A DNA stretch of 64,000 nucleotides from an uncultured delta proteobacterium (GTDB lineage: Bacteria; Desulfobacterota; BSN033; UBA1163): positions 271,529-335,528 of the forward strand of contig CAVPSJ010000015.1 of assembly GCA_963708295.1 (NCBI GenBank), given 5' to 3'. The notes below the pieces were generated by a model. It had not been told where the DNA came from and did no database searches. It saw only the letters and a program-made list of their open reading frames with translations. Within the stretch, counting starts at the first letter, position 1; each line of letters begins with the position of its first letter. Below are positions 9,340-40,658 of the stretch, in pieces. A program made the translations under genes and the position numbers.

Positions 9340-9360
9340 CTCCTTTGCCCGAGAAGGGAC

Positions 9361-9389: not shown

Positions 9390-9519
9390 AATTAAAGGTT
9401 GGAGTAATGGAGTATGGAGTAATGGAATAAAAATGACAGGTAAGACTTATAAAGCATAATTCTTCTTGTGGGAATCAAAACCCCAGCCCTCCAATACTCC
9501 ATCATTCCACGGTTTTTAT

Positions 9520-9596
<77 letters not shown>

Positions 9597-9645
9597 TTTC
9601 CCTCCATTTCACCCGCGGTTACAGTACCGATATTCTGCCGACCTT

Positions 9646-10132
9646 TCAGACATTCCACTGGATGCCCTCTCTGGGCTCGGCTTTTTCTTTGACGCTGGCC
9701 AACCCTCTATCCGCCACTCCCCTGCCGGCCGTCTGATCCGCCATGCGGAAGACCACGAGAATCATTTCCAAGAAGACCCTGCTGAAAACCGCTGTTAGAC
9801 AGAAACACCACAGGACCCCAATCAGAAGCGCAGAAAGTCCAAGCCGGAGGGAGGTTTCAAACCCGCGCGAGGATGAAGAAAAGGGCCACCAGACCCGCGC
9901 AAAGAATCGACAGGATGTAAAGAAACTTTATCATTTTTACGGGAACAGACCGACGGAATGAAAAATCAAAAAGGGGATGGAGAAAATCAAACTGATGCGA
10001 GGGGGACACATCCTCCAAGCCCCTCAGGCGGGAGAGCCTGTCTTCTATCGGGTTGTTCGCCAACGATTCCCCACAGTTGGCGCAGAGATTTGCTCCGTTC
10101 TTGTTCGAAGCGCCGCAGTTTGTGCAAAACAT
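9646..10132 (-). CDS. Zinc-ribbon plus DUF4282-like membrane protein (frameshift near 9866)
   Basis: N-terminal CxxC..CxxC, LFDFSF followed by a TM helix. The shifted frame continues with a second TM and FSRVFLEMILVVFRMA to TGA 9646-9648. Confidence 0.65.
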
Positions 10133-10159
10133 AGGTGTCTCCTTGAGTATTCCGTAAGC

Positions 10160-11365: not shown

Positions 11366-11833
11366 TTTCAGTCTCCTGAAATCTTGGACCCATTCGACGG
11401 CTCCGAAGGGCTCACCATCCCGAGTGAAGTAAAGAGATAGGCCGGGGGCGTCGAATGGGTTGATTTCCTGAACCATTAAGGGGAGTTATAATGCATTTTA
11501 TGTGCCACAAAGAAAACAAATTTTTTTCCTCAGATTTCAATATCTTTTGGCACCACTGAAAAAAGGAATGGATCAAAATCGAAGGGTATGGACAAAAATT
11601 GTCCATCTGACCGCTCTCCCTGCCGGGCCTGTTTCCAAGCCCATGACAAACGCTCCCTCACCCCTATCCCTCTTCCAAGAACGGTGTCGTAACCGTGATG
11701 GGTGGAAGATTCCGGCGGAACGGAAACGGGCTCCTCGTCTTTATGACACCGCCTTCCAAAGGAAGAGCAAAGGAAGAGGGAGGCTGAGGGGTCTCTGGAC
11801 TTCGTGCAAAATTTGAGCTAAAACTGCAGGGTT

Positions 11834-21514: not shown

Positions 21515-22165
21515 TCACATTTTGAAGAACCTCTTCCTCCCGTACCCTGCAAGGCCGATTAACCCGGAGCCAAGAAGGAACAGAGTGGCGGGTTCGGGAA
21601 CCGGCATATTGCTGATATCACCACTCAGAAGTTCGCTACTTCTGAAAGCTCCAGGTGGCGAACCTGATGCAAGAAAGCTTATATTAAAGTTTCCCGAATA
21701 AGTCATATTGGGTAGTCCAAAATAGGCAAGCAATTCCGGATCCTTGGTATCGAAGAAACCTGGGATTGCAACTTTATAAGTAGGACCGACAGCAGCGACT
21801 TGCATACTCGTGAAACTCCCGGTAAGCAGAGTTGTAGATCCGTCTGAAATAGTAATCGATCCACCAGGACCAAAATACCAATGGGATGAATCAGTCGTTA
21901 CTAAATTGCCTGTATGAAAGTTTAAGAAGTAACCAACAAGAGGCTTTGGCACACCACTGTTAAGTGGGGTTCCAATGCCGGTCACGTTATCGACGTCAAT
22001 GCCGGTCCCATAAAGCGGGGTAATCCCACCCGTGTAGTACACAGATCCCCCTGTCGGAGCAATGACGCCAAAATCAATTATGCCGTCGGCCATGACCGGT
22101 GATGGAGTGAAGCTTAACCCCAATGCCAGAATCAATCCTGCTGCTACGATTAAAACTTTCTTCAT
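21515..22165 (-). CDS. PEP-CTERM sorting-domain surface protein
   Basis: Signal peptide, Gly/Thr/Ser-rich body, C-terminal VPEPATLFLLGSGLIGLAGYGRKRF. Confidence 0.95.
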   Translation of the reverse strand: MKKVLIVAAGLILALGLSFTPSPVMADGIIDFGVIAPTGGSVYYTGGITPLYGTGIDVDNVTGIGTPLNSGVPKPLVGYFLNFHTGNLVTTDSSHWYFGPGGSITISDGSTTLLTGSFTSMQVAAVGPTYKVAIPGFFDTKDPELLAYFGLPNMTYSGNFNISFLASGSPPGAFRSSELLSGDISNMPVPEPATLFLLGSGLIGLAGYGRKRFFKM

Positions 22166-25979: not shown

Positions 25980-27476
25980 TCAATACTGAAGGTTCACCGT
26001 GATGCACTTGCGCTGCGTATAGCTGTCGAGCATCCCTTCCAGGGAGTATTCTCGACCGATTCCGCTCTGTTTGAAGCCCCCGTAGGAAGTTCCGGGTAGG
26101 ATTCCTAAGCCCTGGTTCACCTGGACCCATCCCGACTCGATGGCGTGGGCTGTCCGGAGGGCCTTTCCAATATCGTGAGAATAAACAAAAGCGGCCAATC
26201 CATAGTGGCTATCGTTGGCCATCCGGATCGCTTCCTCTTCTTTCTCCCAGGGAATGGCCACAAGCACCGGACCGAAAACTTCCTCCCTTGCGATTCGCCA
26301 TTCATTCTTAATGTGGCTAAATATCGTAGGTTTCATGAAATAGCCTTGCGCGAGAGGACCTTCTTTCGGGGGGAGGCCACCGGTCACCAATCGGCTTCCT
26401 TTCTGTTCGAGTCCGTCTTGGACATAGGCACACACCTTTTCGAATTGAATCCGGTTGATGATCGCTCCGATATCGGTTGCCTCATCGAGAGGATCTCCGA
26501 TCTTGAGCGATCCGAGTTTCTTCACCAATTGATCCACAAAAGAATCGAAGATAGACGCATGGAGGAAGAGGCGCGAACCGGCGGTACAGGATTGTCCCTG
26601 CCGTGTAAAGCGCATTCCGTTGATGACACTCTGCACCACGTGCTCGTCGCTGGCGTCAGGAAAGACAATCTGCGGGCTTTTCCCGCCCAATTCCAAAGTG
26701 ACGGGCACAATCCGTTCTGCCGCCGCGGCCATGATGCTCTTTCCCACTTCCGAGGAGCCTGTCAACGACAATTTTCCTACGCCCGGGTGTCGGGCCAGGA
26801 TCGCTCCACATTCACTTCCGGTCCCGGTGATTACATTCAGGACACCCTTCGGAAGGTGGGCATTGCAGAGGGCTGCCATTTTCAAAACAGCCAAGGGCGC
26901 ATCGGAAGCCGGCTTCAGGACCAGCGCATTCCCCACGGTCAGGGCCATCGTAATTTTCAGTGCTCCCAGAAGGACCGGTGAGTTCCAGGGGATGATCCCT
27001 GCCACCACGCCGATCGGCTCTCGCCTGCTGTAACACAAAACCTGCTCACCCAGCGGAACGGTTTCACCCTTTTGCTCGCTCGCCACGCCACCATAGAATC
27101 GAAACAGGTCCGCGGCAAGGGCGACCTCGCCCCGGGATTGAGTGCGAAGGGCATTGCCGGTCTCAAGGGAAAGGGTCTTGGCGATATCTTCGGATCGTGC
27201 CTCGATGTCCGCTGCGATTTTCAACATCCCTTTTCCACGATCCCTGGGGGCCATTCGCTTCCAGCTCTCAAAGGCCTTGGCCGCTGCCTTCACCGCGCGA
27301 TCGACATCGACTTCCGTTGACCTGGGAACCTCCGCGATGACGGTTCCTCTCCTGGCCGGGGTCTCCACGGGAAGAAACCGTCCGCCTGAACTCGCCGTCC
27401 ACTCGCCATCGATCAACATCAACGGTCGTTCGATGTCTTCTTTCGGTTGTTTCTTACTCTCTCCGGTCGTTTCCAT
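25980..27476 (-). CDS. Aldehyde dehydrogenase family
   Basis: IIPWNSP, LTGSSEVG, LELGGKSP, GQSCTAGSR, EEVFGPV, GGFKQSGIGRE. Confidence 0.95.
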   Translation of the reverse strand: METTGESKKQPKEDIERPLMLIDGEWTASSGGRFLPVETPARRGTVIAEVPRSTEVDVDRAVKAAAKAFESWKRMAPRDRGKGMLKIAADIEARSEDIAKTLSLETGNALRTQSRGEVALAADLFRFYGGVASEQKGETVPLGEQVLCYSRREPIGVVAGIIPWNSPVLLGALKITMALTVGNALVLKPASDAPLAVLKMAALCNAHLPKGVLNVITGTGSECGAILARHPGVGKLSLTGSSEVGKSIMAAAAERIVPVTLELGGKSPQIVFPDASDEHVVQSVINGMRFTRQGQSCTAGSRLFLHASIFDSFVDQLVKKLGSLKIGDPLDEATDIGAIINRIQFEKVCAYVQDGLEQKGSRLVTGGLPPKEGPLAQGYFMKPTIFSHIKNEWRIAREEVFGPVLVAIPWEKEEEAIRMANDSHYGLAAFVYSHDIGKALRTAHAIESGWVQVNQGLGILPGTSYGGFKQSGIGREYSLEGMLDSYTQRKCITVNLQY

Positions 27477-27703
27477 GAGCAGACCCTCCTCGGAATCACC
27501 CTTCCCTCTCAAATAGTTTTATTCTCACACGATCAAGATTGAGTTTCAATAAGATTTTTGAAGAGAGTTGCTTTAGGACGAGGATGACGAGCTGGTCCGT
27601 AATTGAGTAGACGGTTGATTAACCCACCCCCACCCCCTGAACCATGTAAGGTTCAGGGCATTGTCCTGCACCCCGCGTGGTGCAGGGCTTTCCCTCCCCC
27701 TGG

Positions 27704-27933
27704 GAGACTGTGTCACAATGGAACGTCTGAGGGGAGAGGCAGTCGGCTTCCAAAGCTTTAGAACGCGGGTCTTTTAGGAATGGGGAACCGTCGTTGGCTA
27801 AAAATCGGAATGTGTTCATAGGGTTGGCGACCCTGAATCCAAACGGTTATAAAGGTTGCCGCTCTAAATCTTCTCCACCCGACCGCCTCTCCCCTTTTTT
27901 GAAAAGCGTTTTTTCATATTGCGACACAGCCTC
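27704..27933. mobile_element. 230-bp MITE with 16-bp TIRs and TGG target duplication
   Basis: GAGACTGTGTCACAAT versus reverse complement GAGGCTGTGTCGCAAT (14/16). TGG at 27701-27703 and 27934-27936. Confidence 0.7.
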
Positions 27934-28210
27934 TGGAGGGGAGGGAAAGAATGATCTTCGTCTCCCTGGGGGGGGGGATTATATTCTTCCTCCACCTTCA
28001 AGGGGGAGGTCAGGGAGGGGATGGGGTTCCGTTAGTGATAGAAATCATAATGGCGCGCTTTTCTTCCGAGGCGATGCGCCCCGTTTCGGTGAGGAAACAA
28101 AAAACCCCTGGCGGAAGTGTCGAAGGGAAAATGCCCAGGGGAGTTGCAGTTGCGGGAGGGATACTACAGGGGAAACAATGTGGCGGGAAAGAAACTAACA
28201 AAGTCCTGGT

Positions 28211-28393
28211 TCATTCGTCAGTATCCTCCTTTTTCTCGTAGAATGACTTGATGCCCAGACTACCCACGCCCGTCATAATCTTTTTCTTTCCATCCTGCGA
28301 TTCGAGTACAACCATGTTGTTCACGACCTTCTTGACCGTATACTTAGCCCCGTCCAAAGTACTTTTAAATATGTCTCCCTCCTTTGCTTCCAC
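28211..28393 (-). CDS. Small hypothetical protein (60 aa)
   Basis: GTG start with purine-rich SD, own promoter TTGACA-17-TAGTGT, downstream CCCCTGG/CCAGGGG-U6 hairpin (28099-28141). Confidence 0.65.
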   Translation of the reverse strand: MEAKEGDIFKSTLDGAKYTVKKVVNNMVVLESQDGKKKIMTGVGSLGIKSFYEKKEDTDE

Positions 28394-28556
28394 GGCGGCT
28401 TCTCCCTTCCCCTTCCCGCCACGATTCTTACACTACTCCGAACCCACATTTGTGTCAAGAACTATTTAGGGTTTGCTCATCCCCAGTTTTTCCCTCGCCC
28501 GCGACCGGGTGAATCCCCTCCCGGGTATCCGGCAAGCGCTTTGTAACCCTTTGACA

Positions 28557-29417
28557 TCATGCCTTAATCCATTGCGGCGGATGCAGGCGGCCTTGAGTGA
28601 CATCCCGCATTTTAACGCCGCTGATGGCTTCGTAAATCATGCCATTTAAGCCATAAATCCAGACGTCAAACGTGAGCGATTCCTGATCGACCTTCACCGG
28701 CACGACCCGGCCAAGATACCTGCCTCCTTTCTTTGTCTTTTGATAAATAAATCTCTTTTCAAAACCTGTGGGAAAGGCGACCCTGTCGCTGAAGCGTTGT
28801 CCCCAGACGCAAGCTGCGTGCATGGCCGCGTCCAGAGGAAATGGCGAACCAAGCAAATTTTCATCGGCTTCATCATTCCCGCCGGAAAGATAAGCCAGAG
28901 CGCCCTCGGGTGAAACTGCCAAATCGTCGATGATGTTTTGATAAGCTGCTCCGAAAGGTACCAGCTCACGATAAATGGTTGCCGCAGGCACGCGGATGCA
29001 TTTTCCCTCCAGCTTCTCCAAAACCCGGAAAGGAGCTACAGGGCGGAAAGCGGAATCGTCAGTTGCGAATTCCACACAGGCATGCTCGAGGACGCGGCAG
29101 ATGGCGCTTGTTTTTGATTTTAGCGACGTCAAGAGCGCGGCGGTCATACGATGCCCACCGGCATACTCTATCTCCACGGATACGGCCAAATGCTGTGTTT
29201 CCGGCGGAACAAACAAAAAGTGGTGGAAGCTGGCCTTTGACAGACGGTTCATCCTCATCTGCGGGAAATGAAGGTTAACCACACGAGCCAGAGCGATTAA
29301 AGCTTCCACCGCGGGCAGAATCACTTTTCCTTCGAACCGGTGATCGCGCAAATAGGGAGATACCTCAATGACCGAAGGATAGCGGGTTTTCCTGTTTATT
29401 TGGGGAACGATGTCCAT
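28557..29417 (-). CDS. Free-standing polyketide-synthase-type (double hotdog) dehydratase
   Basis: LRDHRFEGKVILPAV (HxxxGxxxxP), FGAAYQ, PFPLDAAMH (DxxxH/Q). Confidence 0.8.
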   Translation of the reverse strand: MDIVPQINRKTRYPSVIEVSPYLRDHRFEGKVILPAVEALIALARVVNLHFPQMRMNRLSKASFHHFLFVPPETQHLAVSVEIEYAGGHRMTAALLTSLKSKTSAICRVLEHACVEFATDDSAFRPVAPFRVLEKLEGKCIRVPAATIYRELVPFGAAYQNIIDDLAVSPEGALAYLSGGNDEADENLLGSPFPLDAAMHAACVWGQRFSDRVAFPTGFEKRFIYQKTKKGGRYLGRVVPVKVDQESLTFDVWIYGLNGMIYEAISGVKMRDVTQGRLHPPQWIKA

Positions 29418-29875
29418 AGCTGAACCGTCTTAGGATCCACGGCCACGGGTGTGCCCGCCAAATTCAAGGCGCAGTGTTTGGTAAAGCCGGTACAGATCAG
29501 ATGTCCCTTCTCCGCGTGTGTGATGACGTAGTCGAACTGCAAACGGACCCGCTCCAGATTTACCGGACGCGTGTGAATATACATCAAATCATCGTAGTAC
29601 AAAGGCTGATTAAAACTGATGCCCAAATCGAAGATCGGATAAACGTAGCCGCTGGCCTCGATCTCTTTGTAGGGGTAAGCCAGGTCCCGCATCAACGAGG
29701 TACGGCCGAATTCAAAATAACGCAGGTAATTGGAATGATAAACCACTTCCGAGCGATCGGTATCGGCGTAGAGCGTCCTCTGTTGAGAACGATGCCAGAT
29801 AAAGCCGCTGGTGCGGTCGCGGACATATCTTTCATCGTTATGATAAATTTCCGGTTTAAACGGCTTGGGCTTCAT
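29396..29875 (-). CDS. Acyl-CoA/ACP thioesterase (YbgC/4HBT hotdog family)
   Basis: YADTDRSEVVYHSNYLRYFEFGRT, PLYYDD. Confidence 0.88.
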   Translation of the reverse strand: MKPKPFKPEIYHNDERYVRDRTSGFIWHRSQQRTLYADTDRSEVVYHSNYLRYFEFGRTSLMRDLAYPYKEIEASGYVYPIFDLGISFNQPLYYDDLMYIHTRPVNLERVRLQFDYVITHAEKGHLICTGFTKHCALNLAGTPVAVDPKTVQLWTSFPK

Positions 29876-29876
29876 T

Positions 29877-31142
29877 CTACACTCCCCTGAGAATGACACA
29901 GCAATTGGTTCCGCCGAATCCGAAGGCATTGGAAAGAGCAATTTCATATCCTTGTCTGCGAGCGGCATTCGGCACAACATCAATGTCGGAAAGACCGGGA
30001 TCGGGAAGATGATTCATCGTGGGCAGGATGATTCCGTTCCTCATTCCTTCGATGGTCAGTGCGGCTTCGATGGCAGCCGTCGCTCCCAGGGTATGTCCTA
30101 ATTGAGATTTATTGGAAGAAACGGGAATCTTTTCTATTCTCTTGCCGAAAACATCCCGCAGGCACTTTATCTCCGTTTGATCTCCTGTAGGCGTGGAAGT
30201 GCCGTGGGCGTTGATATATTGAATATCTTCCGGCTTTAACCCTGCATCTTCGATGGTTTCCCTGATGGCCCGTATAATGGTCGTCGCATTCGGGCTGGTG
30301 TAATGATGGGCATCCGATGTCCAGCCGACACCCAACACCTCGGCTTTGGGTTTCAAGCCATGAACGTTAAGCGATTCTTCCGCCGCGAGAACAACCACGC
30401 CTGCCCCCTCCGATAGGACGAACCCTTTGCGATCGACGCTGAAAGGACGGGAGGCCTGTCCGGGATCGTGATAAGCGCGATCGCCCGGACGAACTTTGAT
30501 CGTGGCGTTCATGTTGGCGAAGCCGTGAATCAATTCCGGTAAAAGGGGCGCGTCGGCGCCGCCAGCCAGGGCAAAATCGCAATCGCCATCCCGAATCATC
30601 CTTGCTCCGATGCCGATGGCATGATTCCCCGAGGCGCAAGCGCCCTGGGGCGAAAAAATAGGACCGGCAAATTTTAACAGCATTCCGGCTTTACCGGAGG
30701 GGAGGTTCGCGCATAGATTAGGCACCAAATAGGGGCTGACCCTCAGGGGCCCACGTTGTTCCAAATTGTGCATGGCAACGCGAAAAGCATCCGATCCGTT
30801 CAGGGCCGAACCGATCAGGCAAGCCATCCGGGGAGCAGTCTCTTCATCGATGGGAACTCCCGAGTTTTCCAGCGCCTCCTTGCAGACAGCCATCGTTAAA
30901 ATCACGAAGGCGGCATTCCAGTTATAAACTTCTTTCGCACTGGTGAAGTCAAGCTTGAGCGGATCCCAGTCCGGAATTTCTCCAACGATGTCGCAGGCCG
31001 ATTCCACGTTGCACCGCGTCACCTTCCTGAAGCCCGTTTCACCCTGGATGGCCCTTTTCCATGTTTTCTCAAAGGTGCTTCCAAGCGGGGTGGCCGCGCC
31101 GTAACCGATCACAAAAACTCTTCTGTTCTTAGGAGCTTTCAT
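29877..31142 (-). CDS. Beta-ketoacyl-ACP synthase II (FabF-like), copy 2
   Basis: GACASG, NAHGTST, SQLGHTLGA, RPFSVDRKGFVLSEG, SNAFGFGG. Confidence 0.93.
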   Translation of the reverse strand: MKAPKNRRVFVIGYGAATPLGSTFEKTWKRAIQGETGFRKVTRCNVESACDIVGEIPDWDPLKLDFTSAKEVYNWNAAFVILTMAVCKEALENSGVPIDEETAPRMACLIGSALNGSDAFRVAMHNLEQRGPLRVSPYLVPNLCANLPSGKAGMLLKFAGPIFSPQGACASGNHAIGIGARMIRDGDCDFALAGGADAPLLPELIHGFANMNATIKVRPGDRAYHDPGQASRPFSVDRKGFVLSEGAGVVVLAAEESLNVHGLKPKAEVLGVGWTSDAHHYTSPNATTIIRAIRETIEDAGLKPEDIQYINAHGTSTPTGDQTEIKCLRDVFGKRIEKIPVSSNKSQLGHTLGATAAIEAALTIEGMRNGIILPTMNHLPDPGLSDIDVVPNAARRQGYEIALSNAFGFGGTNCCVILRGV

Positions 31143-31158
31143 ACGCCGCTATCACGAT

Positions 31159-32412
31159 TTATGCAAGCCTGCGCAACACTAAACAGGAATTGCATCCGCC
31201 GAAACCAAAGGCGTTCTTCAATACGAATTCTTGGCTCAACTTTCTGGCGCCTTCGGCGACGCAGTCCATCACCATTCCCGGATCGGGGGCATAATTGATC
31301 GTCGGAAGCAACGTTTCTTCGGTCATCCCTTCCATGGCCAGAATCGTTTCAATAGCGCTCGACGCTCCCATGGCGTGTCCCAACTGGGATTTATTTGCCG
31401 ATACGGGCGGAACGTTTTTTCCGAAAATGTTCGAGAGGGCATCCGCTTCCACTTTATCGCCCACCTTCGTCGACGTGGCATGGGCGTTAATCGCGTCGAT
31501 ATCGTCGGGCCGCAATCCGGCATGGGTGAGGGTTTCTTCAATACATCTTTGGACCGTCTCCAGCCTGGGCGAAACAAAATGGCCGGCGTCGGATGTCATG
31601 GACCAGCCGGCCATTTCTATTCTGGGCGTGAGTCCATGCGCCTTGGCAAATTCTTCAGTCGCCAAAATAATGCAACCCGCGCCTTCGGAAACGACAAAAC
31701 CTCTTCGATGGATGGAAAAAGGCCTGCTCGTTTTTTCCGGTGGTTCTTCCGGCTGCCCTTCTTTCGGACGGTACGCCCCGTTCATGGTGGCGAATCCGGC
31801 GACAATCGGTTCAACGAGGGGGAAATCCACAGCGCCGCCGATCACCACATCCGCCCTGTTTCCCTGCAGCATCATCCCGCCGATGATGAGCGAGGCGACC
31901 CCGGTAGCGCACGCCGTAACGGTTGAACAGATGGGACCCGTTGCTCCGGTAAGGATGGAAACCTTACCGCCCACCATATTAATGCAGGAATTGGGGTTGG
32001 TAAAGGGGTGAGGCATCTTGCCTTCCGCAACCATCAGGCGATCCGCCTTTAGAACAGCGTCGAGACCGCCAACGGCAGTGCTGAAAGTTACCGCAACCCG
32101 TGGCGCGATATCGGGTGTTATTGAAATTCCACTTTTTTCCAGAGCACGATGCGCGACCAGAAGAGCGTATTTAAAGATCGGCGAGGTCCAATACCCCATT
32201 TCCCGCGGCCGCAAAAAAGGATAGGGCCCCACATCGACCTCGGCGACTTCTCCGGCAACGCGCACGGGAAAGTCGGCGCTAAGCGGGAATCGGGTCAACT
32301 TTCCGATTCCGCTCTCCCCGGCGACCGCGCGCTGCCATTGATGACCCAGATCCGTTCCTAAAGGAGAAACGGCATCGTAGCCCAATATCACGGCCTTCTT
32401 TGAACCCATCAC
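31159..32412 (-). CDS. Beta-ketoacyl-ACP synthase II (FabF-like), copy 1
   Basis: TACATG, NAHATST, SQLGHAMGA, RPFS...GFVVSEG, NAFGFGG. Confidence 0.93.
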   Translation of the reverse strand: MMGSKKAVILGYDAVSPLGTDLGHQWQRAVAGESGIGKLTRFPLSADFPVRVAGEVAEVDVGPYPFLRPREMGYWTSPIFKYALLVAHRALEKSGISITPDIAPRVAVTFSTAVGGLDAVLKADRLMVAEGKMPHPFTNPNSCINMVGGKVSILTGATGPICSTVTACATGVASLIIGGMMLQGNRADVVIGGAVDFPLVEPIVAGFATMNGAYRPKEGQPEEPPEKTSRPFSIHRRGFVVSEGAGCIILATEEFAKAHGLTPRIEMAGWSMTSDAGHFVSPRLETVQRCIEETLTHAGLRPDDIDAINAHATSTKVGDKVEADALSNIFGKNVPPVSANKSQLGHAMGASSAIETILAMEGMTEETLLPTINYAPDPGMVMDCVAEGARKLSQEFVLKNAFGFGGCNSCLVLRRLA

Positions 32413-32505
32413 ATCCTTCCTGAAAGATACGAAAAATTCCTTCCCGGGGAAAAGGAAACCCCGGAGGATGATCGTCCATGCGCCTCTATCAACGATGGTT
32501 GGGAC

Positions 32506-33501
32506 TTACCACGGAATAAACCGGTACAGCTTGGCGAACATCTCGTAAACTTCGATCCAGTTTTGCAAATCTTTGGTCGAATTCATATGCTCCCGCTTGT
32601 TGACCATAATCCAGCTCATGTGCGCCGCTCCATCCTTGCACGTGAGACAATCGCGCGTTGCCGACGTGCAGCATCGGTGAACGGTTTGCAAATCGGAAGC
32701 CCAGCGGATAAAATGGATCAGACGGCGGGGTTGCGGTTTTCTGTGATCCCGGGACTCCGTCACGGACGGACATTCCTCCCAGCCAAAACGGCGACCCATC
32801 ATCTTCCCGGTCGTGATCACTTCATGGTAGTATTTGCTCGAGATGACCGTTTGAGAGTATCGGTCCAGCATGCCGTCCATTTCGCAGCGTAAATCTTCTA
32901 GCTCGCCTTCGCGCCAGGAAAACCCGTCCACCCCCTCGTCATTCGACAGAAGCTGGAGATGCACTTTCAAGCCGACATCCGCAATTCGTTTGATGACCGG
33001 TTCGATCTTTCCCACCTGCCGCGGCGTGATGGTGTACAGATAGTAGGTGTAAGGGTCGCCGGCATAATTTCTACTGGAAACGGCAAAGGTATCGCGCCCG
33101 CGAAGAATCTTTTCATCCCCGGGGCCGCCCCACAGTGAAATCCCCACCATCATATCGGGAAACTGATCACGGGAAACTTTAATCTGTCCGTTGGTGGCGC
33201 AATACGTCGGCAGGCGTTTGTAAAAAGCCTCAACGCGGTCCAGGCAAAGCGTCGGCTCTCCGCCGATCAGGATCGCCAGATTCACACCGCGCTCTTTTTC
33301 TTTATCGATAAAATTTTCCCATTTCCGTATATCCATTTCCTCCGCTACTTGATGCTCCCCCGAAGAAAAGAAGAAGCACCCCTTACAGCGTAAATTACAG
33401 CGGTTCGTTACATCATAGATGGAACTGCGGATGTTAAGATTGGCAATTCGCTTGTAGCGGGCTTGCCAATCGTTATCCAGCAGGGAACTCACTGTCTTCA
33501 T
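32506..33501 (-). CDS. Radical SAM protein (paralogue B)
   Basis: CNLRCKGC, IGGEPT, ATNG, C-terminal C...CCTSATRDCLTC. Confidence 0.9.
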   Translation of the reverse strand: MKTVSSLLDNDWQARYKRIANLNIRSSIYDVTNRCNLRCKGCFFFSSGEHQVAEEMDIRKWENFIDKEKERGVNLAILIGGEPTLCLDRVEAFYKRLPTYCATNGQIKVSRDQFPDMMVGISLWGGPGDEKILRGRDTFAVSSRNYAGDPYTYYLYTITPRQVGKIEPVIKRIADVGLKVHLQLLSNDEGVDGFSWREGELEDLRCEMDGMLDRYSQTVISSKYYHEVITTGKMMGRRFGWEECPSVTESRDHRKPQPRRLIHFIRWASDLQTVHRCCTSATRDCLTCKDGAAHMSWIMVNKREHMNSTKDLQNWIEVYEMFAKLYRFIPW

Positions 33502-33546
33502 CCACTCGGCCCTTCCATGTCCGTGGTGTTCTTCCCCTGGCCATCC

Positions 33547-33590
33547 CCGTTCACCCTGAGCCTGTCGAAGGGCAAACTCAGCACGAACGG
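33547..33590. repeat. TGAGCCTGTCGAA-type dispersed palindromic repeat
   Basis: CCGTTCACCCTGAGCCTGTCGAAGGG...GAACGG. The same core recurs at about 37362 and 37414. Confidence 0.6.
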
Positions 33591-33659
33591 CTTCATCCTC
33601 AGTGCCTGTACGATGATGGACGATTAGGATCTATGATAGTATCTATGCCGGCATCCTTG

Positions 33660-34739
33660 TTAATGTGGAGCGATCTGTGTCGGCTCGATCGGCTCGGCAC
33701 AAAGGTTTTCCCCTTTTTCATAGTCCATGACCCAGACCGACAGATAAGTGTCGACATAATCAAGCCAGGATTTAAATGAGGCCAGGTTATGGGCATGGCG
33801 GTAAAGGCGCGCCGTGACGACAGCGGACCCGGCGGCGTAATGACGGCAATCGTCGCAATCCGTATCCGGCACGCAGCAGGCAACCGACCTGTCCCAGTTC
33901 AAGTCCGTTCTGTATTGCCGGAAAGATCTGCCCAGACCGATATCCTGGGAAGGATTCTGGCGGGGATAGGAACAACGGTAAAGATCGTGCAAACCTTTTT
34001 GATGGGTGTGTGCCACGGCATTGTAAACGGAAAAAAGAATATTTTGCGGATATTTATTCAAAAGCGCTATCATCTTTTGTTTTGTTCGTTGAAGAGATTC
34101 ATCATCATGGCGCAGGGGGCCGGTATAACCGACCGGAGAAGAAAACACATTAAAGGTTAATTTACAACCGTGGGTCACAAGCGCTTCGACGACCTCATGG
34201 ACTTCATCGATATTTCCCCGCGTAAAAGTGTAAACAAACACCGCCCGCGGATCATTTTTATAATTTTCGATCTGCGCTTTCAAAAGATTTTTCGCTTTTC
34301 GGATGCGCAGGCTGGTTTCGTCATTGCCCCAGACGGAGATGTGAACCTTATAACGGACCGATTCCGGGATTTTTCTAAAACCATTCGTCGCGATACTGCC
34401 CAGCGGCATCTCCTGATAGCACACCTCGAGCAACTCCGGCACCAAAGACGGCTCTGCTCCTGCCAGAACGACATAGGTAATGCCGCGAGCTTTTTCGCCT
34501 TGCATCAGCCTTCGCCATGCCTGCACGTCGCCCATTTCCCGGGCAAATTGTTTATCCCCTTCAAAATAATAACAGCCGTCACAACGGATATTACAGCGGT
34601 TACTCATGTCATACGTTGACTCCCGCAGAAAAAAATATTTCCTGACTTTTTCCCACCGCGCCTTTACCTCCGGCCGGGCCAAGAGCTCGGAAAATTTCGG
34701 TTTGGCAGGTTCCAAAAAATCTTTAGGGTTAATCGTCAT
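33660..34739 (-). CDS. Radical SAM protein (paralogue A)
   Basis: CNIRCDGC, LAGAEPS, ATNG, C-terminal C...CCVPDTDCDDC. Confidence 0.9.
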   Translation of the reverse strand: MTINPKDFLEPAKPKFSELLARPEVKARWEKVRKYFFLRESTYDMSNRCNIRCDGCYYFEGDKQFAREMGDVQAWRRLMQGEKARGITYVVLAGAEPSLVPELLEVCYQEMPLGSIATNGFRKIPESVRYKVHISVWGNDETSLRIRKAKNLLKAQIENYKNDPRAVFVYTFTRGNIDEVHEVVEALVTHGCKLTFNVFSSPVGYTGPLRHDDESLQRTKQKMIALLNKYPQNILFSVYNAVAHTHQKGLHDLYRCSYPRQNPSQDIGLGRSFRQYRTDLNWDRSVACCVPDTDCDDCRHYAAGSAVVTARLYRHAHNLASFKSWLDYVDTYLSVWVMDYEKGENLCAEPIEPTQIAPH

Positions 34740-34759
34740 AGACCGGTCATCTCTGTCGA

Positions 34760-35032
34760 CTAATTTTTCGTGGCAAGTTTTTCTTCGATATAATCGGCGA
34801 TCAGACGAATTGTTTTCAATTTTGGATAGTCGTCTTCATCAATCACAATTTTATATTCATCCTGCAGGACCAAGGCAAGGGTGGCCAAATCCATACTATC
34901 AATGCCCAGTTCATCCACCAGGTCCATATCCGGATTGAATGTATCGGCAGTCACATCTTCCAGCTTAAGTTCTCCGATGAGGACTTCGGCCACGTGACGG
35001 ACAATGCCTCTCATATCGATATTTTCAGGCAT
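34760..35032 (-). CDS. Acyl carrier protein
   Basis: Acidic 90-aa protein with ELGIDSMD phosphopantetheine motif. SD GGAGG. Confidence 0.92.
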   Translation of the reverse strand: MPENIDMRGIVRHVAEVLIGELKLEDVTADTFNPDMDLVDELGIDSMDLATLALVLQDEYKIVIDEDDYPKLKTIRLIADYIEEKLATKN

Positions 35033-35346
35033 TCGAACCCTCCTTCGACACGTTTCTTGTTCTTTCCTATCTCTTCCGCAAGGATAAAAGATACGGGTTT
35101 ACTCGCGACGCAGCCGTTCTCGGGGAGATGGCCCTCTGCACATGCCAATCCATTGCTGTGATATTTTACCCACCCCAACGAACTGTCCGGATTGACAAAC
35201 TGAAGGAGCTGTCCCCGTAAAAGCAATCAGCTTTTTGTGAGAGCGAGAATTGTCCGCTGTCCCCACCGCAGCCAAGAGCGGCGAACCGTTTGTTTCATCT
35301 GTGCTCCTTGAGGCGTTTATGGGTCAACGGCCATTTTCTTAGCAAA

Positions 35347-35375
35347 AGTGTACTAGATCAAAGACCGAGTGTCAA
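35347..35375 (-). promoter_or_regulatory. sigma70 promoter of ACP/radical SAM operon
   Basis: TTGACA-17 bp-TACACT on the minus strand. Confidence 0.7.
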
Positions 35376-35517
35376 TGGGACCGAGGACCACACGATGTCT
35401 CCATGGGGACATGATTACTTTGCTATCTCATTAGATCTCAAACCCCTTGACGGAGGTTGGCCGCCAGGGATATTCTGATAGAATATTAAATCCATAGGAA
35501 AGCGGAGAGGACGGAAG

Positions 35518-36528
35518 ATGAATGAGGGGCGGAAGATGAATATTGTCCGTGCTGCGGTGGTCCAGGATAGTCCAGTTGTTTTTAATCGGAAAGCCACCGT
35601 TGAAAAGGTCTACTCCTTAGTGAACCAAGCGGGCAGAGAAGGGGCAAGACTGGTCGTCCTTCCTGAGGCGTTCGTCTCAGCATACCCCGCAGGACTGGAC
35701 TTTGGAGCCCGGATTGGCTCCCGGACGCCAGAAGGGCGTGAGGATTTCAGGCGATATCACGAAAGTGCTGTGGATGTGCCCGGTCCGGCCTGTGAGGCCC
35801 TCGGGAAGGCTGCGCGGGATGCCCGGGTTTTTCTGGTCGTCGGCGTCATCGAGCGTGACGGCGGAACGCTTTATTGTACGGTCCTTTTCTTTTCCCCGGA
35901 TGGAGGATTCATGGGAAAACATCGAAAGTTAATGCCCACCGCCATGGAGCGCCTGGTCTGGGGATTTGGGGATGGTTCGACGCTGCCCGTATTTGATACC
36001 CCTCTCGGAAAAATTGGAAGCGTCATTTGTTGGGAAAACTACATGCCCATGCTCCGCATGCACATGTTCGCCCAAGGAATCCAGATCTACTGTGCCCCAA
36101 CGGCCGACTCCCGGGACACCTGGCTTCCTTCGATGCGCCACATCGCCCTGGAGGGACGCTGCTTCGTCCTCAGCTGCTGCCAGTACCTCACCCGGGCCGA
36201 TTGTCCGGAGGACTATGCCGCCGGCCGGGGAAACGACCCGGCCACGGTTCTGATGCGGGGGGGAAGCTGCATCATTGGCCCCCTGGGCCAGATTTTGGCT
36301 GGCCCAAATTTTGAAGGGCCGTGTATCCTGATTGCGGATCTGGATTTGGATGAGATTCCAAGAGGCAAATATGACTTCGACGTCGTCGGCCATTATTCCC
36401 GGCCGGATATTTTTCGCCTTTATGTCAACACTCGTCCTACCCCACCGGTGGTGGTATCTTCAGGAGACGAGGAGGAAACGAATCTTCCACGGAAGCCTGG
36501 CCAAGGGCCTCGCGGTGATCCAGCGTGA
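35518..36528 (+). CDS. Nitrilase (carbon-nitrogen hydrolase family; start may be 35536)
   Basis: E-K-C triad: PEAF, HRKLMPT, ICWENYMP. Also DFDVVGHYSRPD. Confidence 0.93.
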   Translation: MNEGRKMNIVRAAVVQDSPVVFNRKATVEKVYSLVNQAGREGARLVVLPEAFVSAYPAGLDFGARIGSRTPEGREDFRRYHESAVDVPGPACEALGKAARDARVFLVVGVIERDGGTLYCTVLFFSPDGGFMGKHRKLMPTAMERLVWGFGDGSTLPVFDTPLGKIGSVICWENYMPMLRMHMFAQGIQIYCAPTADSRDTWLPSMRHIALEGRCFVLSCCQYLTRADCPEDYAAGRGNDPATVLMRGGSCIIGPLGQILAGPNFEGPCILIADLDLDEIPRGKYDFDVVGHYSRPDIFRLYVNTRPTPPVVVSSGDEEETNLPRKPGQGPRGDPA

Positions 36529-36933: not shown

Positions 36934-37634
36934 TTTTCATCTTTCAGGTTATTCTTTGTACTTGTGTTGGAAGCACTTTTGAGATACGCTGGAATGTCTC
37001 CCGTATTTCAATTGATCTTCCTTTCCATTTCCTCTCCCTGCAAGAAAGGAATTTTCAGTTCCCCTTTGATGGATAACTCATGGATCGGTCTCGAATGAAG
37101 AGGGTTTTCGATTTATGGTTGAAACATAAGGAAGGCCTCCAGAGGATATCATCATCCCCCTGGAGACTTCATACAGGCATTTTCCTGAAACCCTTTCGCA
37201 TCCATCACTCCAACAGGCTGATGTTGCGTGCCCGGGAAGCCCCGCCTGTGGGCGGGTATCTTCACAAGACTTTACTCGTTTTGAACGGAAAGGTCAATAA
37301 GAATTATTCCTGCCGTGAGCCTTTCGATTCCCGGTCTATTCTTCGACTTCCCTCGGGAGGGTGAGCCTGTCGAACCAAAGACCGGGGCTTGCCTTCGACC
37401 CGATTGATTCGACTGAGCCTGTCGAGCGCCTCCAGGTCGAGCGACTCGCCGAAATCTCAGGCCGAGGAGTCGAGGTTCACCCTGCATCAGCTTTCTTTCC
37501 CATCTCTACGGGTGAAGGGCTGCTCAGGAGGAGTATTTTTCTTGACATACAACTCTCTTTTTCTTATATATAACTCACTCCTTGGTTTGACCATTTCACA
37601 AGATCGCCAGCTCTCACTGCCAGAAAGATCCAAC

Positions 37635-38075
37635 ATGACCATAGACCGAATCAGCGGGGTCTTTCTCTTTCTCCTCGGACTCTTTGTCGCCTGGGAGGAC
37701 CGCGTGCTTCCCCTGGGCACCCATGGTCGTCCAGGCCCTGGATATTTCCCTCTGTTGCTTTCCGCCCTCCTCGGAATCCTGGGGCTTCTGCTGTTCCTCC
37801 GGGGTCGGTCATCCGCTCCTTTGCGTTCCATCCGCTGGGAAGAAGCGGGGCATGCCGCGGCGATTCTGGCGTGTAGCTTCCTGGCCACATTCGGAATTGA
37901 AAGGCTCGGCTACCGCATCACCATGATCCTCATCCTGGGATTTCTTTTCGGCGTTGTGGAACGTCTGAAACTCTGGCAGGTCTTTGTTCTGACGATCGGT
38001 CTCTCTCTCGGCTCCTTCTGGGTTTTCGATTCCCTTCTTCGGGTCATTCTTCCGAGAGGAGGTTTTGGATTCTAA
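37635..38075 (+). CDS. tctB: Tripartite tricarboxylate transporter TctB
   Basis: PGPGYFP, ERLGY, four TM helices ending LPRG. Promoter TTGACA-17-TATATA at 37542-37570. Confidence 0.85.
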   Translation: MTIDRISGVFLFLLGLFVAWEDRVLPLGTHGRPGPGYFPLLLSALLGILGLLLFLRGRSSAPLRSIRWEEAGHAAAILACSFLATFGIERLGYRITMILILGFLFGVVERLKLWQVFVLTIGLSLGSFWVFDSLLRVILPRGGFGF

Positions 38076-39598
38076 TGGGAGATACCTTCCATCATCTGCT
38101 TTTGGGTTTTTCAACGGCCCTCACGGCAACCAATCTCTTTTATGGCTTTCTGGGCTGTTTCATAGGAACGATCGTCGGTGTTCTTCCGGGAGTCGGCCCC
38201 CTCGCAGGGATCAGCATGCTCCTCCCTACGACCTTCGGGCTCAACACGACCTCCGCCATCATCCTTCTGGCCGGGATCTATTATGGGGCGATGTACGGGG
38301 GATCGACGACGTCCATCCTCATGAGAATCCCCGGGGAGGCGGCCTCTGTTGTCACCTGCATCGACGGATATGCCATGGCGCAGAAGGGCCGGGCCGGCCC
38401 GGCCCTTGCGATTGCCGCCATCGGCTCGTATGTCGCCGGGACGCTGAGTATCGTCGGGTTGATGTTTCTTGCGCCTCCCCTGGCCAGGTTCGCTCTCCGA
38501 TTCGGTCCCCCGGAATATGTCAGCCTTCTTGTCTTAGGGCTCATCGTCCTTGGATACATGACCGGAGGATCGGTCATCAAAAACCTATCGATGATCATTC
38601 TGGGCCTCCTCTTCGGTATGATCGGGATCGATCAGATGACCGGGTATTTCCGGTTTTCATACGGGATTGTGGCCCTGGGAGATGGCATCGGGATTGTTCC
38701 GGTCGCTGTGGGTCTCTTTGGAATTGCTGAGATCCTTGCCACGGCCGGACAGTCGGGTAGGCCGGAAGTGATGAAGCCTCGGTTCAAAGACCTCATCCCG
38801 TCGCGTCAGGAGTTCAAAGAATCGTGGTGGCCCATGGGCCGGGGGACGGTACTCGGTTTTCTGATCGGTATCATCCCGGGCTCCGCCCATATCATTTCAA
38901 CCTTCGTCTCCTATGCCGTGGAGAGAAGGATATCGAAGCATCCCGAAAAGTTCGGCAAAGGGGCGGTGGAAGGGGTTGCCGGGCCGGAGTCGGCCAACAA
39001 CGCAGCAAGCTGCGGAGCCTTGGTGCCCATGCTGGCCCTTGGCGTTCCCACAGGTGGAATCCCCGCGGTCCTGCTTGCGTCCCTCATGGTCCATGGAATC
39101 AATCCGGGGCCTCTCTTCATCAAGGAGCAGCCTATTGTTTTCTGGGGGCTCGTTGCAAGCATGTATGTCGGGAACGTGATCCTCCTGCTTCTCAATCTTC
39201 CCCTGGTTGGCCTCTTTGTCAACTTCCTGAGAATCCCCTATAGAATCCTCTATCCGACGATCCTGATGTTTTGCGTGGTCGGGGTCTATGCGGTTAATTC
39301 GAGCTTTGTTGACGTGGGCATCATGAGCGTCATGGGAGTCCTGGGGTACATTTTACGCAAGTTTGACTTTGAGACCGCGCCCGTCGTCCTCGGGGTTGTC
39401 CTGGCGCCGATCATTGAGGTGAGTTTCAGGCAATCCCTTGCCATGTCGGATGGGCGATATTCCATCTTTGTTCAGCGCCCGGTATCCGTTATCTTTCTGA
39501 TGTCCGCTGTTGCAATGATTCTCCTTGCCGTTAGGCCTCTGATTTGGAAGAAGAGCGGCTTCCGGGACCGCTTGACGGAGGCGGAGAAGGGCGGATAA
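38075..39598 (+). CDS. tctA: Tripartite tricarboxylate transporter TctA
   Basis: GVLPGVGP, YYGAMYGGS, IPGEAASVVTCIDGY, GPESANNA. Confidence 0.95.
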   Translation: MGDTFHHLLLGFSTALTATNLFYGFLGCFIGTIVGVLPGVGPLAGISMLLPTTFGLNTTSAIILLAGIYYGAMYGGSTTSILMRIPGEAASVVTCIDGYAMAQKGRAGPALAIAAIGSYVAGTLSIVGLMFLAPPLARFALRFGPPEYVSLLVLGLIVLGYMTGGSVIKNLSMIILGLLFGMIGIDQMTGYFRFSYGIVALGDGIGIVPVAVGLFGIAEILATAGQSGRPEVMKPRFKDLIPSRQEFKESWWPMGRGTVLGFLIGIIPGSAHIISTFVSYAVERRISKHPEKFGKGAVEGVAGPESANNAASCGALVPMLALGVPTGGIPAVLLASLMVHGINPGPLFIKEQPIVFWGLVASMYVGNVILLLLNLPLVGLFVNFLRIPYRILYPTILMFCVVGVYAVNSSFVDVGIMSVMGVLGYILRKFDFETAPVVLGVVLAPIIEVSFRQSLAMSDGRYSIFVQRPVSVIFLMSAVAMILLAVRPLIWKKSGFRDRLTEAEKGG

Positions 39599-39668
39599 GA
39601 CACAGTCTCCTAGGGGTGAGGGGAGATCATCTTTCACAATAGCGTGAAATACAAAAGGAGGAAACAAC

Positions 39669-40658
39669 ATGAAACGTCACAGAATTTTTTGGGGTATGAT
39701 GGCAATTTGCATTGGTTGTTTGGGGCTTGCCGCCGGACTTTCGGCGGCTCAGGAAGTGTACCCGTCTCGACCCATTCAGATCATCGTTCCTTTTCCCCCC
39801 GGCGGTGTGGCAGACCTTGTGGCACGCCCTTTTGCCACCGCTCTTGAAAAGCTTCTGAAGCAACCGGTGGTTGTCGTCAACAAGACCGGCGCCGGCGGTG
39901 CGGTCGGGATGCAGACTGCGGCCGTGGCAAAGCCGGATGGCTACACCTTGATGGTCGCCCTCTCCAGCATTTCAGTCATGCCGGAGGTAGACGCCCTGTT
40001 TAACCGGCCTCCAACCTATAAACTCGAAGATTTTGCCCCGATTGCCCTTCTTACATCGGATCCAACGATCCTTGCCGTCAGGAAAGAGACTCCCTGGAAG
40101 ACGGTTTCTGAATTTGTTGCCGATGCTAAGCGAAGGCCTAACGAGATCAAATACAGCTCTTCGGGTGTTTACGGAACGATGCACGTGGCGATGGAACTCT
40201 TTACGCATGCTGCCGGAATCCAGTTGCGTCATATCCCGACCGCAGGCGGGGGACCGGCTCTGACTGCGCTCCTGGGAGGACATGTCGATTGCTCCTCCAT
40301 CGGACCGAACGTTGCGATCCCGCAAGTGAAGGCCGGAGCCCTCCGGGTGCTCGCTTCCTGGGGAGACAAGCGACTCGCTGCCCTGCCCGATGTCCCCACG
40401 CTCATGGAACTTGGATATAAAGACGTCGAATTTTACATCTGGTCCGGCTTTTTCGCCCCCAGGGCAACGCCTCCTGCTGCCATCAAAGTACTGAGAGAAG
40501 CCACTCAAAAGGCCGTCAATTCGCCGGAGTTTAAAACAGCCCTGGAGAAGATGGAAACACCCATCGCCTACCTTGACGCAGACGATTTTCAGAAGTTCTG
40601 GGACAAGGATGCGAAGCGATTAATCCAGGGAGTGAGAAACATAGGGAAGGTGCAGTAA
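39669..40658 (+). CDS. tctC: Tripartite tricarboxylate transporter substrate-binding protein (Bug/TctC)
   Basis: YPSRPIQIIVPFPPGGVAD, NKTGAGG, KPDGYTL, LPDVPTL. Confidence 0.95.
   Translation: MKRHRIFWGMMAICIGCLGLAAGLSAAQEVYPSRPIQIIVPFPPGGVADLVARPFATALEKLLKQPVVVVNKTGAGGAVGMQTAAVAKPDGYTLMVALSSISVMPEVDALFNRPPTYKLEDFAPIALLTSDPTILAVRKETPWKTVSEFVADAKRRPNEIKYSSSGVYGTMHVAMELFTHAAGIQLRHIPTAGGGPALTALLGGHVDCSSIGPNVAIPQVKAGALRVLASWGDKRLAALPDVPTLMELGYKDVEFYIWSGFFAPRATPPAAIKVLREATQKAVNSPEFKTALEKMETPIAYLDADDFQKFWDKDAKRLIQGVRNIGKVQ

Follow-up and report, generated by a model that had tools for sequence, protein, structure and literature searches.

The window analysed here is a 64,000-nt stretch of contig C15 from the genome of an uncultured deltaproteobacterium, and all coordinates given below without another contig or locus name are positions within it. 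At 28557-35375 it carries an operon of seven genes, here called the cassette, which encode an acyl carrier protein (ACP), two radical S-adenosylmethionine (SAM) enzymes (rSAM-A and rSAM-B), two ketosynthases (KS1 and KS2), a thioesterase (TE) and a dehydratase (DH). The operon is a real, selected and uncharacterised module. It belongs, as a detached member, to a known orphan class and is not a new pathway standing on its own. The explanation that best accommodates the evidence is that the window probably holds a detached functional copy of a seven-gene module that normally forms part of a larger, aryl-polyene-like or 'ladderane-type' envelope-lipid cluster of anaerobic Desulfobacterota.

The seven genes are co-oriented on the minus strand and run from 35032 to 28557 in the order ACP, rSAM-A, rSAM-B, KS1, KS2, TE and DH, with zero internal stops in the ORF translations. 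Domains were assigned by searches with Pfam and NCBIfam models. The ACP (90 aa, 34760..35032; PF00550, E 1.1e-09) is followed by rSAM-A (359 aa, 33660..34739; PF04055, E 1.6e-05, 25.6 bits) and rSAM-B (331 aa, 32506..33501; PF04055, E 2.4e-08). Next come two FabF-type ketosynthases that each match PF00109 and PF02801, KS1 (417 aa, 31159..32412) and KS2 (421 aa, 29877..31142), then a hotdog thioesterase of the YbgC/4HBT type (TE, 159 aa, 29396..29875; PF13279, E 2e-12) and a stand-alone double-hotdog dehydratase of the polyketide synthase (PKS) type (DH, 286 aa, 28557..29417; PF14765, E 3.2e-09; PF21089, E 5.5e-07). By these coordinates, the intergenic gaps from the ACP gene to KS2 are 20, 158, 93 and 16 bp. 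The longest ORF for TE would begin at 29983; the ATG at 29875 yields 159 aa, which is the length of the orthologs (159-162 aa), and with this start KS2 and TE lie 1 bp apart and TE overlaps DH by 22 bp. The earlier note on this DNA had described seven co-oriented, frameshift-free genes in this order, with the same 1-bp spacing and an overlap of TE with DH, and both descriptions were borne out.

Substitution rates indicate that all seven genes are under purifying selection and that the operon is real and functional, more than a run of chance ORFs. In comparisons with three relatives, every one of the seven genes has a dN/dS of 0.04-0.30 wherever dS is unsaturated; the values are 0.08-0.30 against the same-genus ortholog (locus L032), at dS ~0.4-0.55, and 0.06-0.29 against locus L012. 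The most constrained of the seven is rSAM-B (0.06-0.08), the ACP lies at 0.07-0.17, and DH is the least constrained (~0.3). A scan for relatives, seeded with rSAM-A and using one genome per species, returned at least 582 loci, and gene order was counted in the best 80 of them. All seven genes stand in order in 54 of these loci; in 21 a contig end truncates the cassette but the part present keeps the order, and five deviate. The ACP precedes rSAM-A in 75 of the 80; the other five have no ACP match (L063, L065 and L067, cut at the 5' end) or a weaker one. The two radical SAM genes are adjacent in nearly all loci. The co-occurrence of the radical SAM pair with ACP and ketosynthase genes, which the earlier note had put forward as a check, is therefore conserved.

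The genome surveys describe a cassette whose distribution is evidently patchy and whose sequence is strongly conserved. Across families, cassette identity is 63-91%. Among 41 close relatives, orthologs (E < 1e-220) are present in 5 of 15 same-genus genomes, the window's own included, and in 0 of 26 others. In an even sample of the phylum Desulfobacterota, the cassette is found in 30 of 401 genomes and 18 of 254 genera, and 0 of the 11 other sampled genomes of the window's own family carry it. A homolog search seeded with the Desulfocapsa ortholog returned named matches from Desulfobulbaceae, Desulfocapsa, Desulfobulbus and Desulfoarculaceae; the name Desulfotalea is absent among the 120 matches listed, which does not settle its presence.

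The wider context of the cassette becomes apparent in its relatives. Accessory genes were counted in 25 loci of at most 20 kb from different families, and in 23 of them at least one accessory lipid gene lies beside the cassette. The most frequent is an ApeI/FabA-like dehydratase directly before the ACP gene (18 loci), and this upstream gene has an ApeI-like match in Pfam. A B12-radical SAM gene flanks the cassette in 11 loci, a polysaccharide-deacetylase-like protein (PDA) is present in 10, and a PlsY-like acyltransferase gene directly follows DH in eight. A fusion of ketosynthase and chain-length factor (KS-CLF) occurs in seven loci, a fusion of an MMPL protein with a methyltransferase (MMPL-MT, ~1040 aa) in five, and a GT25 glycosyltransferase in four. 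Extra ACPs and a phytoene-desaturase-like oxidase also belong to the larger cluster in relatives. In the same-genus locus L032, a phytoene-desaturase-like amine oxidase, TerC and MMPL-MT are followed divergently by PDA, the cassette, a third ketosynthase, an ACP and a B12-radical SAM enzyme. Across the 401-genome sample, MMPL-MT is found in 28 of 30 cassette carriers versus 6 of 371 non-carriers, two of which match weakly; these are raw counts from genomes that are related to one another. Compared with PDB sequences, MMPL-MT matches generic methyltransferases only, and the anammox enzyme AmxMT1 (8HD2; PMC9821293) is not among the six matches.

In the window itself, the cassette stands apart from these partners. 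Nucleotide homology between the window and its relatives extends from ~35089 to 28556 only, which is exactly the cassette, and a tblastn search of the window with the proteins that flank the cassette in L012, a close relative (upstream, the products of a 139-aa ORF and of second-ACP, B12-radical SAM, deacetylase-like and ApeI-like dehydratase genes; downstream, a PlsY-like protein), gave no match. A palindromic element resembling a miniature inverted-repeat transposable element (MITE), ~260 nt long with nested inverted repeats, lies at 27688-27949, 600 bp downstream of the cassette. In a blastn search of the window's own genome it gave 75 high-scoring segment pairs; among these, at least nine further copies that are 79-96% identical and no shorter than 200 bp lie on contigs C15, C5, C12, C17 and C13. 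The element fits a rearrangement, and it links contig C15 with the remainder of the assembly as well. A search for flanking direct or inverted repeats that would bracket the cassette as a mobile unit found none, the sole repeat being this one-sided MITE-like element. Because homology ends exactly at the cassette ends and a MITE-like element lies just downstream, the isolated position points to relocation and not to an ancestral stand-alone state.

Candidate partner genes are present elsewhere in the same genome. Contig C4, at 181-196 kb, encodes an MMPL-MT that is 81% identical to that of L032 and a deacetylase-like protein that is 76% identical, followed by an ACP, a FabA-like dehydratase, a second ACP, an AMP-ligase, an LpxL-like acyltransferase and a FakA/DegV-like protein; the stretch continues with a PlsC-like acyltransferase, a FabG-like reductase and a LolA-like protein. 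No ketosynthase is encoded there. The C4 locus thus looks like an aryl-polyene-type backbone without condensing enzymes, of which the window cassette may supply two. Four matches to phosphopantetheinyl transferases (PPTases) and four to malonyl/acyl transferases are also found elsewhere in the genome, none of either being in the window; two of the malonyl/acyl transferase matches lie within very long open frames (2381 and 2681 aa). The earlier note had stated that B12-radical SAM, desaturase-like, FabZ-type, glycosyltransferase and acyltransferase genes are absent, and this is true of the window, but such genes flank the cassette in relatives and partner genes of this kind occur on C4 in the window's own genome.

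Two further observations concern contig C4. A phytoene-desaturase-like amine oxidase gene at C4:176881-178384 matches its L032 ortholog in two pieces and in different frames, a sign of either a frameshift or a misassembly near C4:177685. At C4:221000-245000 there is a second cluster with fatty acid synthase (FAS) and radical SAM genes, comprising two ketosynthases, two methyltransferases, a FabA-like dehydratase and a FabD-like transferase, together with two B12-radical SAM genes, both of which are divided between separate B12-binding and radical SAM ORFs, an LpxL-like acyltransferase, a BcrAD/HgdD-like activase set, a SPASM radical SAM enzyme and a GT2.

The two radical SAM enzymes are paralogs with ~27% identity, and each contains a CX3CX2C motif (C49, C53 and C56 in rSAM-A; C35, C39 and C42 in rSAM-B) and a C-terminal CC-x6-C-x2-C motif. 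Residues C49, C53, C56, G94, E96, N119, G120, R147, C288, C295 and C298 of rSAM-A are invariant in 56 of 56 aligned relatives, and the invariant cysteines of rSAM-B in 25 sequences are C35, C39, C42, C278, C285 and C288. On PF04055, rSAM-B scores 34.8 bits, above the 29.5-bit gathering cut-off. Neither protein matches the SPASM model PF13186 or displays the seven-cysteine, two-cluster motif, and neither matches the B12-binding model PF02310. Because just one C-terminal CC-x6-C-x2-C motif is conserved, each enzyme probably holds the SAM cluster and a single auxiliary iron-sulfur (Fe-S) cluster in a twitch-like architecture.

By sequence models, rSAM-A and rSAM-B match no named family. None of the NCBIfam models exceeds 35 bits on either protein, versus cut-offs of 180-650, and the Tes/Mss model NF045702 (cut-off 450 bits) gives 23.2 bits for rSAM-A and 30.9 bits for rSAM-B, over the radical SAM core only. 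A profile of the rSAM-A family matches SkfB (E 6.9e-17) and GDGT-MAS (E 1.5e-5) among PDB sequences. The AF2 model of rSAM-A has a pLDDT of 90.7; VIA-align places it nearest to SkfB (Z 17.7), anSMEcpe (17.5) and BlsE (17.2), which are tied, with GDGT-MAS (7tom) at 12.9, and Foldseek places SuiB and SkfB nearest, with TM <= 0.52. The family is small, with 487 members at E <= 1e-3 and 244 at E <= 1e-10 in a HMMER search of 1.84 billion cluster representatives. Matches in the ESM Atlas are unnamed 'putative radical SAM' clusters only, mostly from Thermodesulfobacteriota, and the members of 10 distant family representatives are annotated 'hypothetical protein' only and come from Alphaproteobacteria and Sphingomonadaceae.

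Two single cases provide insights into how the pair may work. In locus L139 (G414:C29), at 9340-11460, rSAM-A and rSAM-B are fused in frame into one 706-aa protein with a 20-residue linker, and this natural fusion hints that the two enzymes act together. A complex prediction for rSAM-A with rSAM-B returned a score of 0.00 in a run without controls and was used neither for nor against an interaction. The second case is an outgroup protein, P0129, which is 40% identical to rSAM-A and lies at L145:7001-8255, a metagenome contig. Its locus is one of polysaccharide biosynthesis with WcbI, a GDP-mannose 4,6-dehydratase and a sulfotransferase; an overlapping ACP gene lies directly 3' of P0129, and a ketosynthase is absent nearby. 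Because even this outgroup, a single case, still adjoins an ACP gene, partnership with an ACP seems to be a trait of the radical SAM family beyond the operon alone.

The remaining genes encode proteins with the residues expected of active enzymes. The ACP has the DSM phosphopantetheine-attachment motif; all NCBIfam ACP models score under their cut-offs on it, and its closest solved relatives in the PDB are ordinary ACPs only. KS1 and KS2 share ~41% identity and match PF00109 and PF02801 with E values of 1e-25 to 1e-38. The catalytic triad is Cys168, His311 and His346 in KS1, kept in 22 of 22 sequences, and Cys169, His313 and His350 in KS2, kept in 18 of 18. On TIGR03150, the FabF equivalog with a cut-off of 493.75 bits, KS1 scores 324.8 and KS2 385.3, and the closest solved relatives are FabF 4ls5 for KS1 (E 1.9e-72) and FabF 3o04 for KS2 (E 1.7e-83). 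By sequence, both are predicted to share the fold and chemistry of FabF; the housekeeping FabF is a different protein, encoded with acpP on contig C11. Their retained triads mark both as condensing ketosynthases, not chain-length factors. TE scores 78.2 bits on TIGR00051, above the 68.7-bit cut-off, which places it among YbgC/FadM hotdog thioesterases; its DTD motif with the catalytic Asp is kept in 15 of 15 sequences, and its closest solved relatives are YbgC-like thioesterases. DH is above the cut-off on both PF14765 and PF21089, as a PKS-type double-hotdog dehydratase would be, and its catalytic His26 (HxxxGxxxxP) and Asp196 (DxxxH) are both invariant in 16 of 16 sequences. Against PDB sequences, DH gave 0 matches at E <= 1.

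Clusters of this general kind have been noticed before, the nearest published ones being those of Kuenenia and Desulfotalea. Clusters that combine type II FAS and radical SAM genes were described as orphans from deltaproteobacteria and anammox bacteria in 2009 by Rattray et al. (PMC2649909), and the gene list of Kuenenia stuttgartiensis kuste3335-3352 was given by Javidpour et al. in 2016 (PMC4790861). As far as these sources describe them, the clusters of Kuenenia and Desulfotalea psychrophila parallel the full cluster of the relatives in gene inventory and in deltaproteobacterial occurrence, a comparison made by gene content only. Common to the published kuste list and the relatives are ACPs, several FabF paralogs, two adjacent non-B12 radical SAM genes (kuste3342/3343), a phytoene-desaturase-like oxidase, a polysaccharide-deacetylase-like protein, a glycosyltransferase, an acyl-AMP ligase and a FabZ/FabA-type dehydratase; the membrane protein that lies beside a SAM methylase in the listed kuste cluster is fused with it as MMPL-MT in the relatives. 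The differences are that the window itself holds just seven of the genes, that kuste3348 is listed without the catalytic triad whereas KS1 and KS2 both keep it, and that the kuste genes as published include neither a double-hotdog DH of the PKS type nor a TE of the YbgC type (PMC4790861). The earlier note had proposed a candidate new pathway. The pathway is indeed unsolved, but it is not previously unseen, since the orphan class has been in print since the 2009 description (PMC2649909). Surveys with antiSMASH likewise report 'ladderane' biosynthetic gene clusters (BGCs) of unknown function in Desulfobacterota (PMC9902471).

The anammox 'cluster I' is described as having a dedicated ACP, two FabF homologs, one of them inactive, a B12-radical SAM enzyme, FabZ and PDH (PMC10139942; preprint 10.64898/2026.05.19.726425). 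On that description, it resembles the cassette in combining a dedicated ACP, two FabF homologs and a radical SAM enzyme in one cluster of an anaerobe, with a product pathway that is unsolved. In cluster I, however, the inactive FabF serves as a chain-length-factor-like partner, whereas both ketosynthases here keep the catalytic triad; the B12-radical SAM enzyme, FabZ and PDH reported there have no counterpart in the window, and rSAM-A and rSAM-B are without a B12 domain. The window thus does not show the set of amxACP, amxFabZ, FabF2 with an inactive FabF, PDH and B12-radical SAM that marks the anammox ladderane cluster I. Because neither KS1 nor KS2 is a chain-length factor, the pair differs both from the KS/CLF pair of type II PKS and from the anammox FabF2/FabFmut heterodimer.

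Aryl polyene (APE) clusters contain a KS/CLF pair, a ketoreductase (KR), ApeI/ApeP dehydratases, an adenylating enzyme, a methyltransferase, an acyltransferase, a LolA-like protein and an MMPL exporter, and they are not known to include radical SAM enzymes. The likeness lies in an ACP-based type II line in which a KS pair, hotdog dehydratases, a thioesterase, a methyltransferase, an acyl-AMP ligase, acyltransferases, a LolA-like protein and an MMPL exporter are all represented in the relatives' loci or on C4. In contrast, the cassette has no KS/CLF pair, its DH is a PKS double-hotdog enzyme, and no aryl starter is evident. The window itself is not an APE cluster, as it is without KR, ApeI-like dehydratase, ligase, methyltransferase, acyltransferase and exporter, and the cassette is without a CLF. 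By analogy, the wider system would work like an APE cluster to which radical SAM enzymes have been added.

The radical SAM pair can be compared with two sets of characterised enzymes. It shares a partial TIM-barrel core and a C-terminal Cys-rich segment with SPASM/twitch enzymes (SkfB 6efn, anSMEcpe 4k36, BlsE 7vob, SuiB 5v1q and CteB 5wgg), but identity is only 11-22%, the single CC-x6-C-x2-C motif is not a full SPASM motif, and an ACP takes the place of a peptide or sugar partner. Tes/GDGT-MAS, Mss and GrsA/GrsB resemble the predicted activity in forming C-C bonds on inert lipid chains independently of oxygen, according to a 2026 review of lipid-modifying radical SAM enzymes whose headings cover only Tes, Mss, Gms, GrsA/B, Gmm, Cds, HpnH/J/P/R and Jaw5, with GrsA and GrsB named together in one heading as a pair of related enzymes (PMC13459092). 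The same review treats the ladderane enzymes as unknown, and among its headings there is none for an ACP-dependent member and none for a pathway with the present gene set (PMC13459092), in agreement with the earlier note, which had recognised no characterised pathway of this composition. Tes, Mss and Grs differ from the present pair in acting on finished membrane lipids, not ACP-bound chains, and the similarity is weak (NF045702, 23-31 bits). If GrsA and GrsB act at different ring positions, they are a precedent for a division of labour between rSAM-A and rSAM-B. Within the openly accessible literature searched, no characterisation of the cassette was found, only anammox and ladderane papers and genome-mining surveys.

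A mechanism can be proposed on this basis. The dedicated ACP would carry an acyl chain that KS1 and KS2, both catalytically complete, would extend with malonyl units, and the PKS-type DH would dehydrate the chain, with ketoreductase, malonyl transferase and PPTase acting in trans from elsewhere in the genome. Without oxygen, rSAM-A and rSAM-B would abstract hydrogen from the ACP-tethered chain, and the resulting carbon radical would either be resolved by C-C ring closure or cross-linking or pass an electron to the auxiliary cluster, leaving a double bond; the two enzymes may act at different positions or in successive steps. TE would release or edit the chain, and an acyltransferase would take the product to its anchor, the PlsY-like enzyme in relatives and the LpxL-like or PlsC-like candidates on C4 here. 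MMPL-MT and a LolA-like partner would then methylate the product and export it to the envelope. Radical modification of an ACP-bound chain, as the earlier note had suggested, is plausible from the gene content. The data do not distinguish ring closure from desaturation: ring closure or cross-linking and desaturation appear equally probable as the radical SAM reaction, and some other reaction is only slightly less so. It is a tentative idea, and one that may well be wrong, that rSAM-A and rSAM-B constitute an unnamed ACP-dependent radical SAM family doing an unprecedented reaction, such as oxygen-free ring closure or cross-linking of polyenoyl-ACP, that gives a new class of envelope-exported lipid in widespread syntrophic and sulfate-reducing anaerobes of peat, sediment and digesters.

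Several observations weigh against the interpretation of the cassette as one working part of an envelope-lipid cluster. In the window's own genome the cassette is separated from every accessory gene, and its cooperation with the C4 locus is proposed solely from co-occurrence. The association with MMPL-MT has exceptions in both directions: three carriers (G173, G318 and G370) match the methyltransferase part of MMPL-MT only, MMPL-MT was not found in carriers G106 (93% complete) and G414 (88% complete), and it occurs without the cassette in G011, which is of the same genus, and in G141, G322 and G330, so the link appears not to be obligatory. The cassette can also be broken up. Desulfobacter curvatus DSM 3379 has ACP, rSAM-A and DH without rSAM-B, KS and TE, in a locus that reads ACP, A, DH, PlsY, GT25, MMPL-methyltransferase and SPASM radical SAM; L064, L082 and L083 hold ACP, A and B followed by unrelated genes, with KS, TE and DH not nearby; and L085 has a 4.5 kb insertion between B and KS1. 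Because of these deviating loci, the seven genes are seen as modular and not as an indivisible unit. With regard to the pair itself, the score of rSAM-A on PF04055 (25.6 bits) lies under Pfam's 29.5-bit gathering threshold, although its membership in the radical SAM superfamily is supported by the invariant motif, the SkfB profile match and the fold. The fold and profile matches are to generic SPASM/twitch enzymes (TM <= 0.52, Z ~17) and indicate no reaction, and the A-B fusion is a single case from a metagenome-assembled genome that is 88% complete with 6% contamination.

An alternative is that the seven genes, together with primary FAS, form a self-contained compact pathway, as the earlier note had proposed, making a free modified fatty acid or small polyketide that TE releases as a signal, antibiotic or cofactor-like molecule and not as an envelope lipid. 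The cassette does stand alone in the window with its own promoter-like site, no accessory gene and no tblastn match to the L012 flanking proteins; it brings its own thioesterase, and L129 and L130 are likewise without an accessory gene nearby. This is nevertheless unlikely in view of the accessory lipid genes that adjoin the cassette in 23 of 25 related loci and of MMPL-MT in 28 of 30 carriers, and the picture of a self-contained pathway is not supported. The PlsY-like gene directly follows DH in eight of the 25 loci, including L012 and L136, the nearest to the window among them, and the exact end of homology at the cassette ends with a MITE-like element just downstream argues for relocation. 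The isolation of the cassette could alternatively mean that it is a silent or decaying remnant, stranded from its partners by rearrangement, and the MITE-like element 600 bp downstream, the C4 phytoene-desaturase-like gene that matches its ortholog in two different frames, and the presence of the cassette in just 5 of 15 same-genus genomes, its own included, are compatible with such a fate. Yet all seven frames are intact and every catalytic residue is kept, and dN/dS of 0.08-0.30 against the same-genus ortholog argues against relaxed selection over most of the divergence; very recent silencing is possible, and as a whole this account is highly improbable.

A different assignment of the radical SAM chemistry would have the pair modify a protein or the carrier itself, in the style of SPASM/twitch peptide maturases, or make a small cofactor, with KS, TE and DH merely co-located. 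The nearest folds and profiles of the pair are indeed peptide or small-molecule SPASM/twitch enzymes (SkfB, SuiB, CteB, anSME and BlsE), but these matches mainly cover the common radical SAM core at 11-22% identity. No precursor-peptide-like gene is present among the listed ORFs of at least 70 aa beside the pair, the ACP directly precedes rSAM-A across families (63-91% identity), and the outgroup with 40% identity is itself followed by an ACP gene, all of which makes this assignment improbable, more so than a self-contained pathway.

What is specific to the window is that the seven genes are detachable yet under purifying selection, which offers a minimal module for heterologous expression. 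The cassette is also abundant, with at least 582 relatives and a presence in 30 of 401 Desulfobacterota genomes, and its carriers include Smithella-type syntrophs and Desulfobulbales. Identification of the product would explain what the 'ladderane' BGC calls in non-anammox anaerobes encode, would extend the still short list of lipid-modifying radical SAM enzymes by an ACP-dependent branch, and might give a new lipid biomarker for anoxic peat and sediment. If the radical SAM pair is orthologous to kuste3342/3343, it would give access, through a more widely distributed system, to those radical steps of anammox lipid biosynthesis that are still unsolved.

Upstream of the operon, at 35347..35375 on the minus strand, lies the sigma-70-like box TTGACA-17-TACACT, which the earlier note had taken as the promoter. 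The sequence is present, ~310 nt 5' of the ACP start, and among the sigma-70-like sites of the 8.2 kb scanned it fits the consensus best (10 of 12 positions), but it is to be read as a consensus match only and lies outside the nucleotide block shared with relatives; the same scan found 14 sites versus 6.4 +/- 2.4 in shuffled sequence. An Rfam scan of 27400-35600 at E <= 1 gave isrA as its sole match, at chance level (E 0.53), and no riboswitch in the 310-nt leader. The aldehyde dehydrogenase (ALDH) and iron-dependent alcohol dehydrogenase (Fe-ADH) genes downstream were considered as pathway members and rejected, as their homologs adjoin the cassette in 0 of 80 loci. Neither a PEP-CTERM protein gene at 21515-22165 (minus strand) nor a tricarboxylate transporter operon of TctB, TctA and TctC at 37389-40658 (plus strand) is kept beside the cassette in relatives. 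The interval from DH to the MITE-like element contains a 60-aa ORF with a GTG start, at 28211-28393 on the minus strand, and a TTGACA-like box ~40 nt upstream of this ORF.

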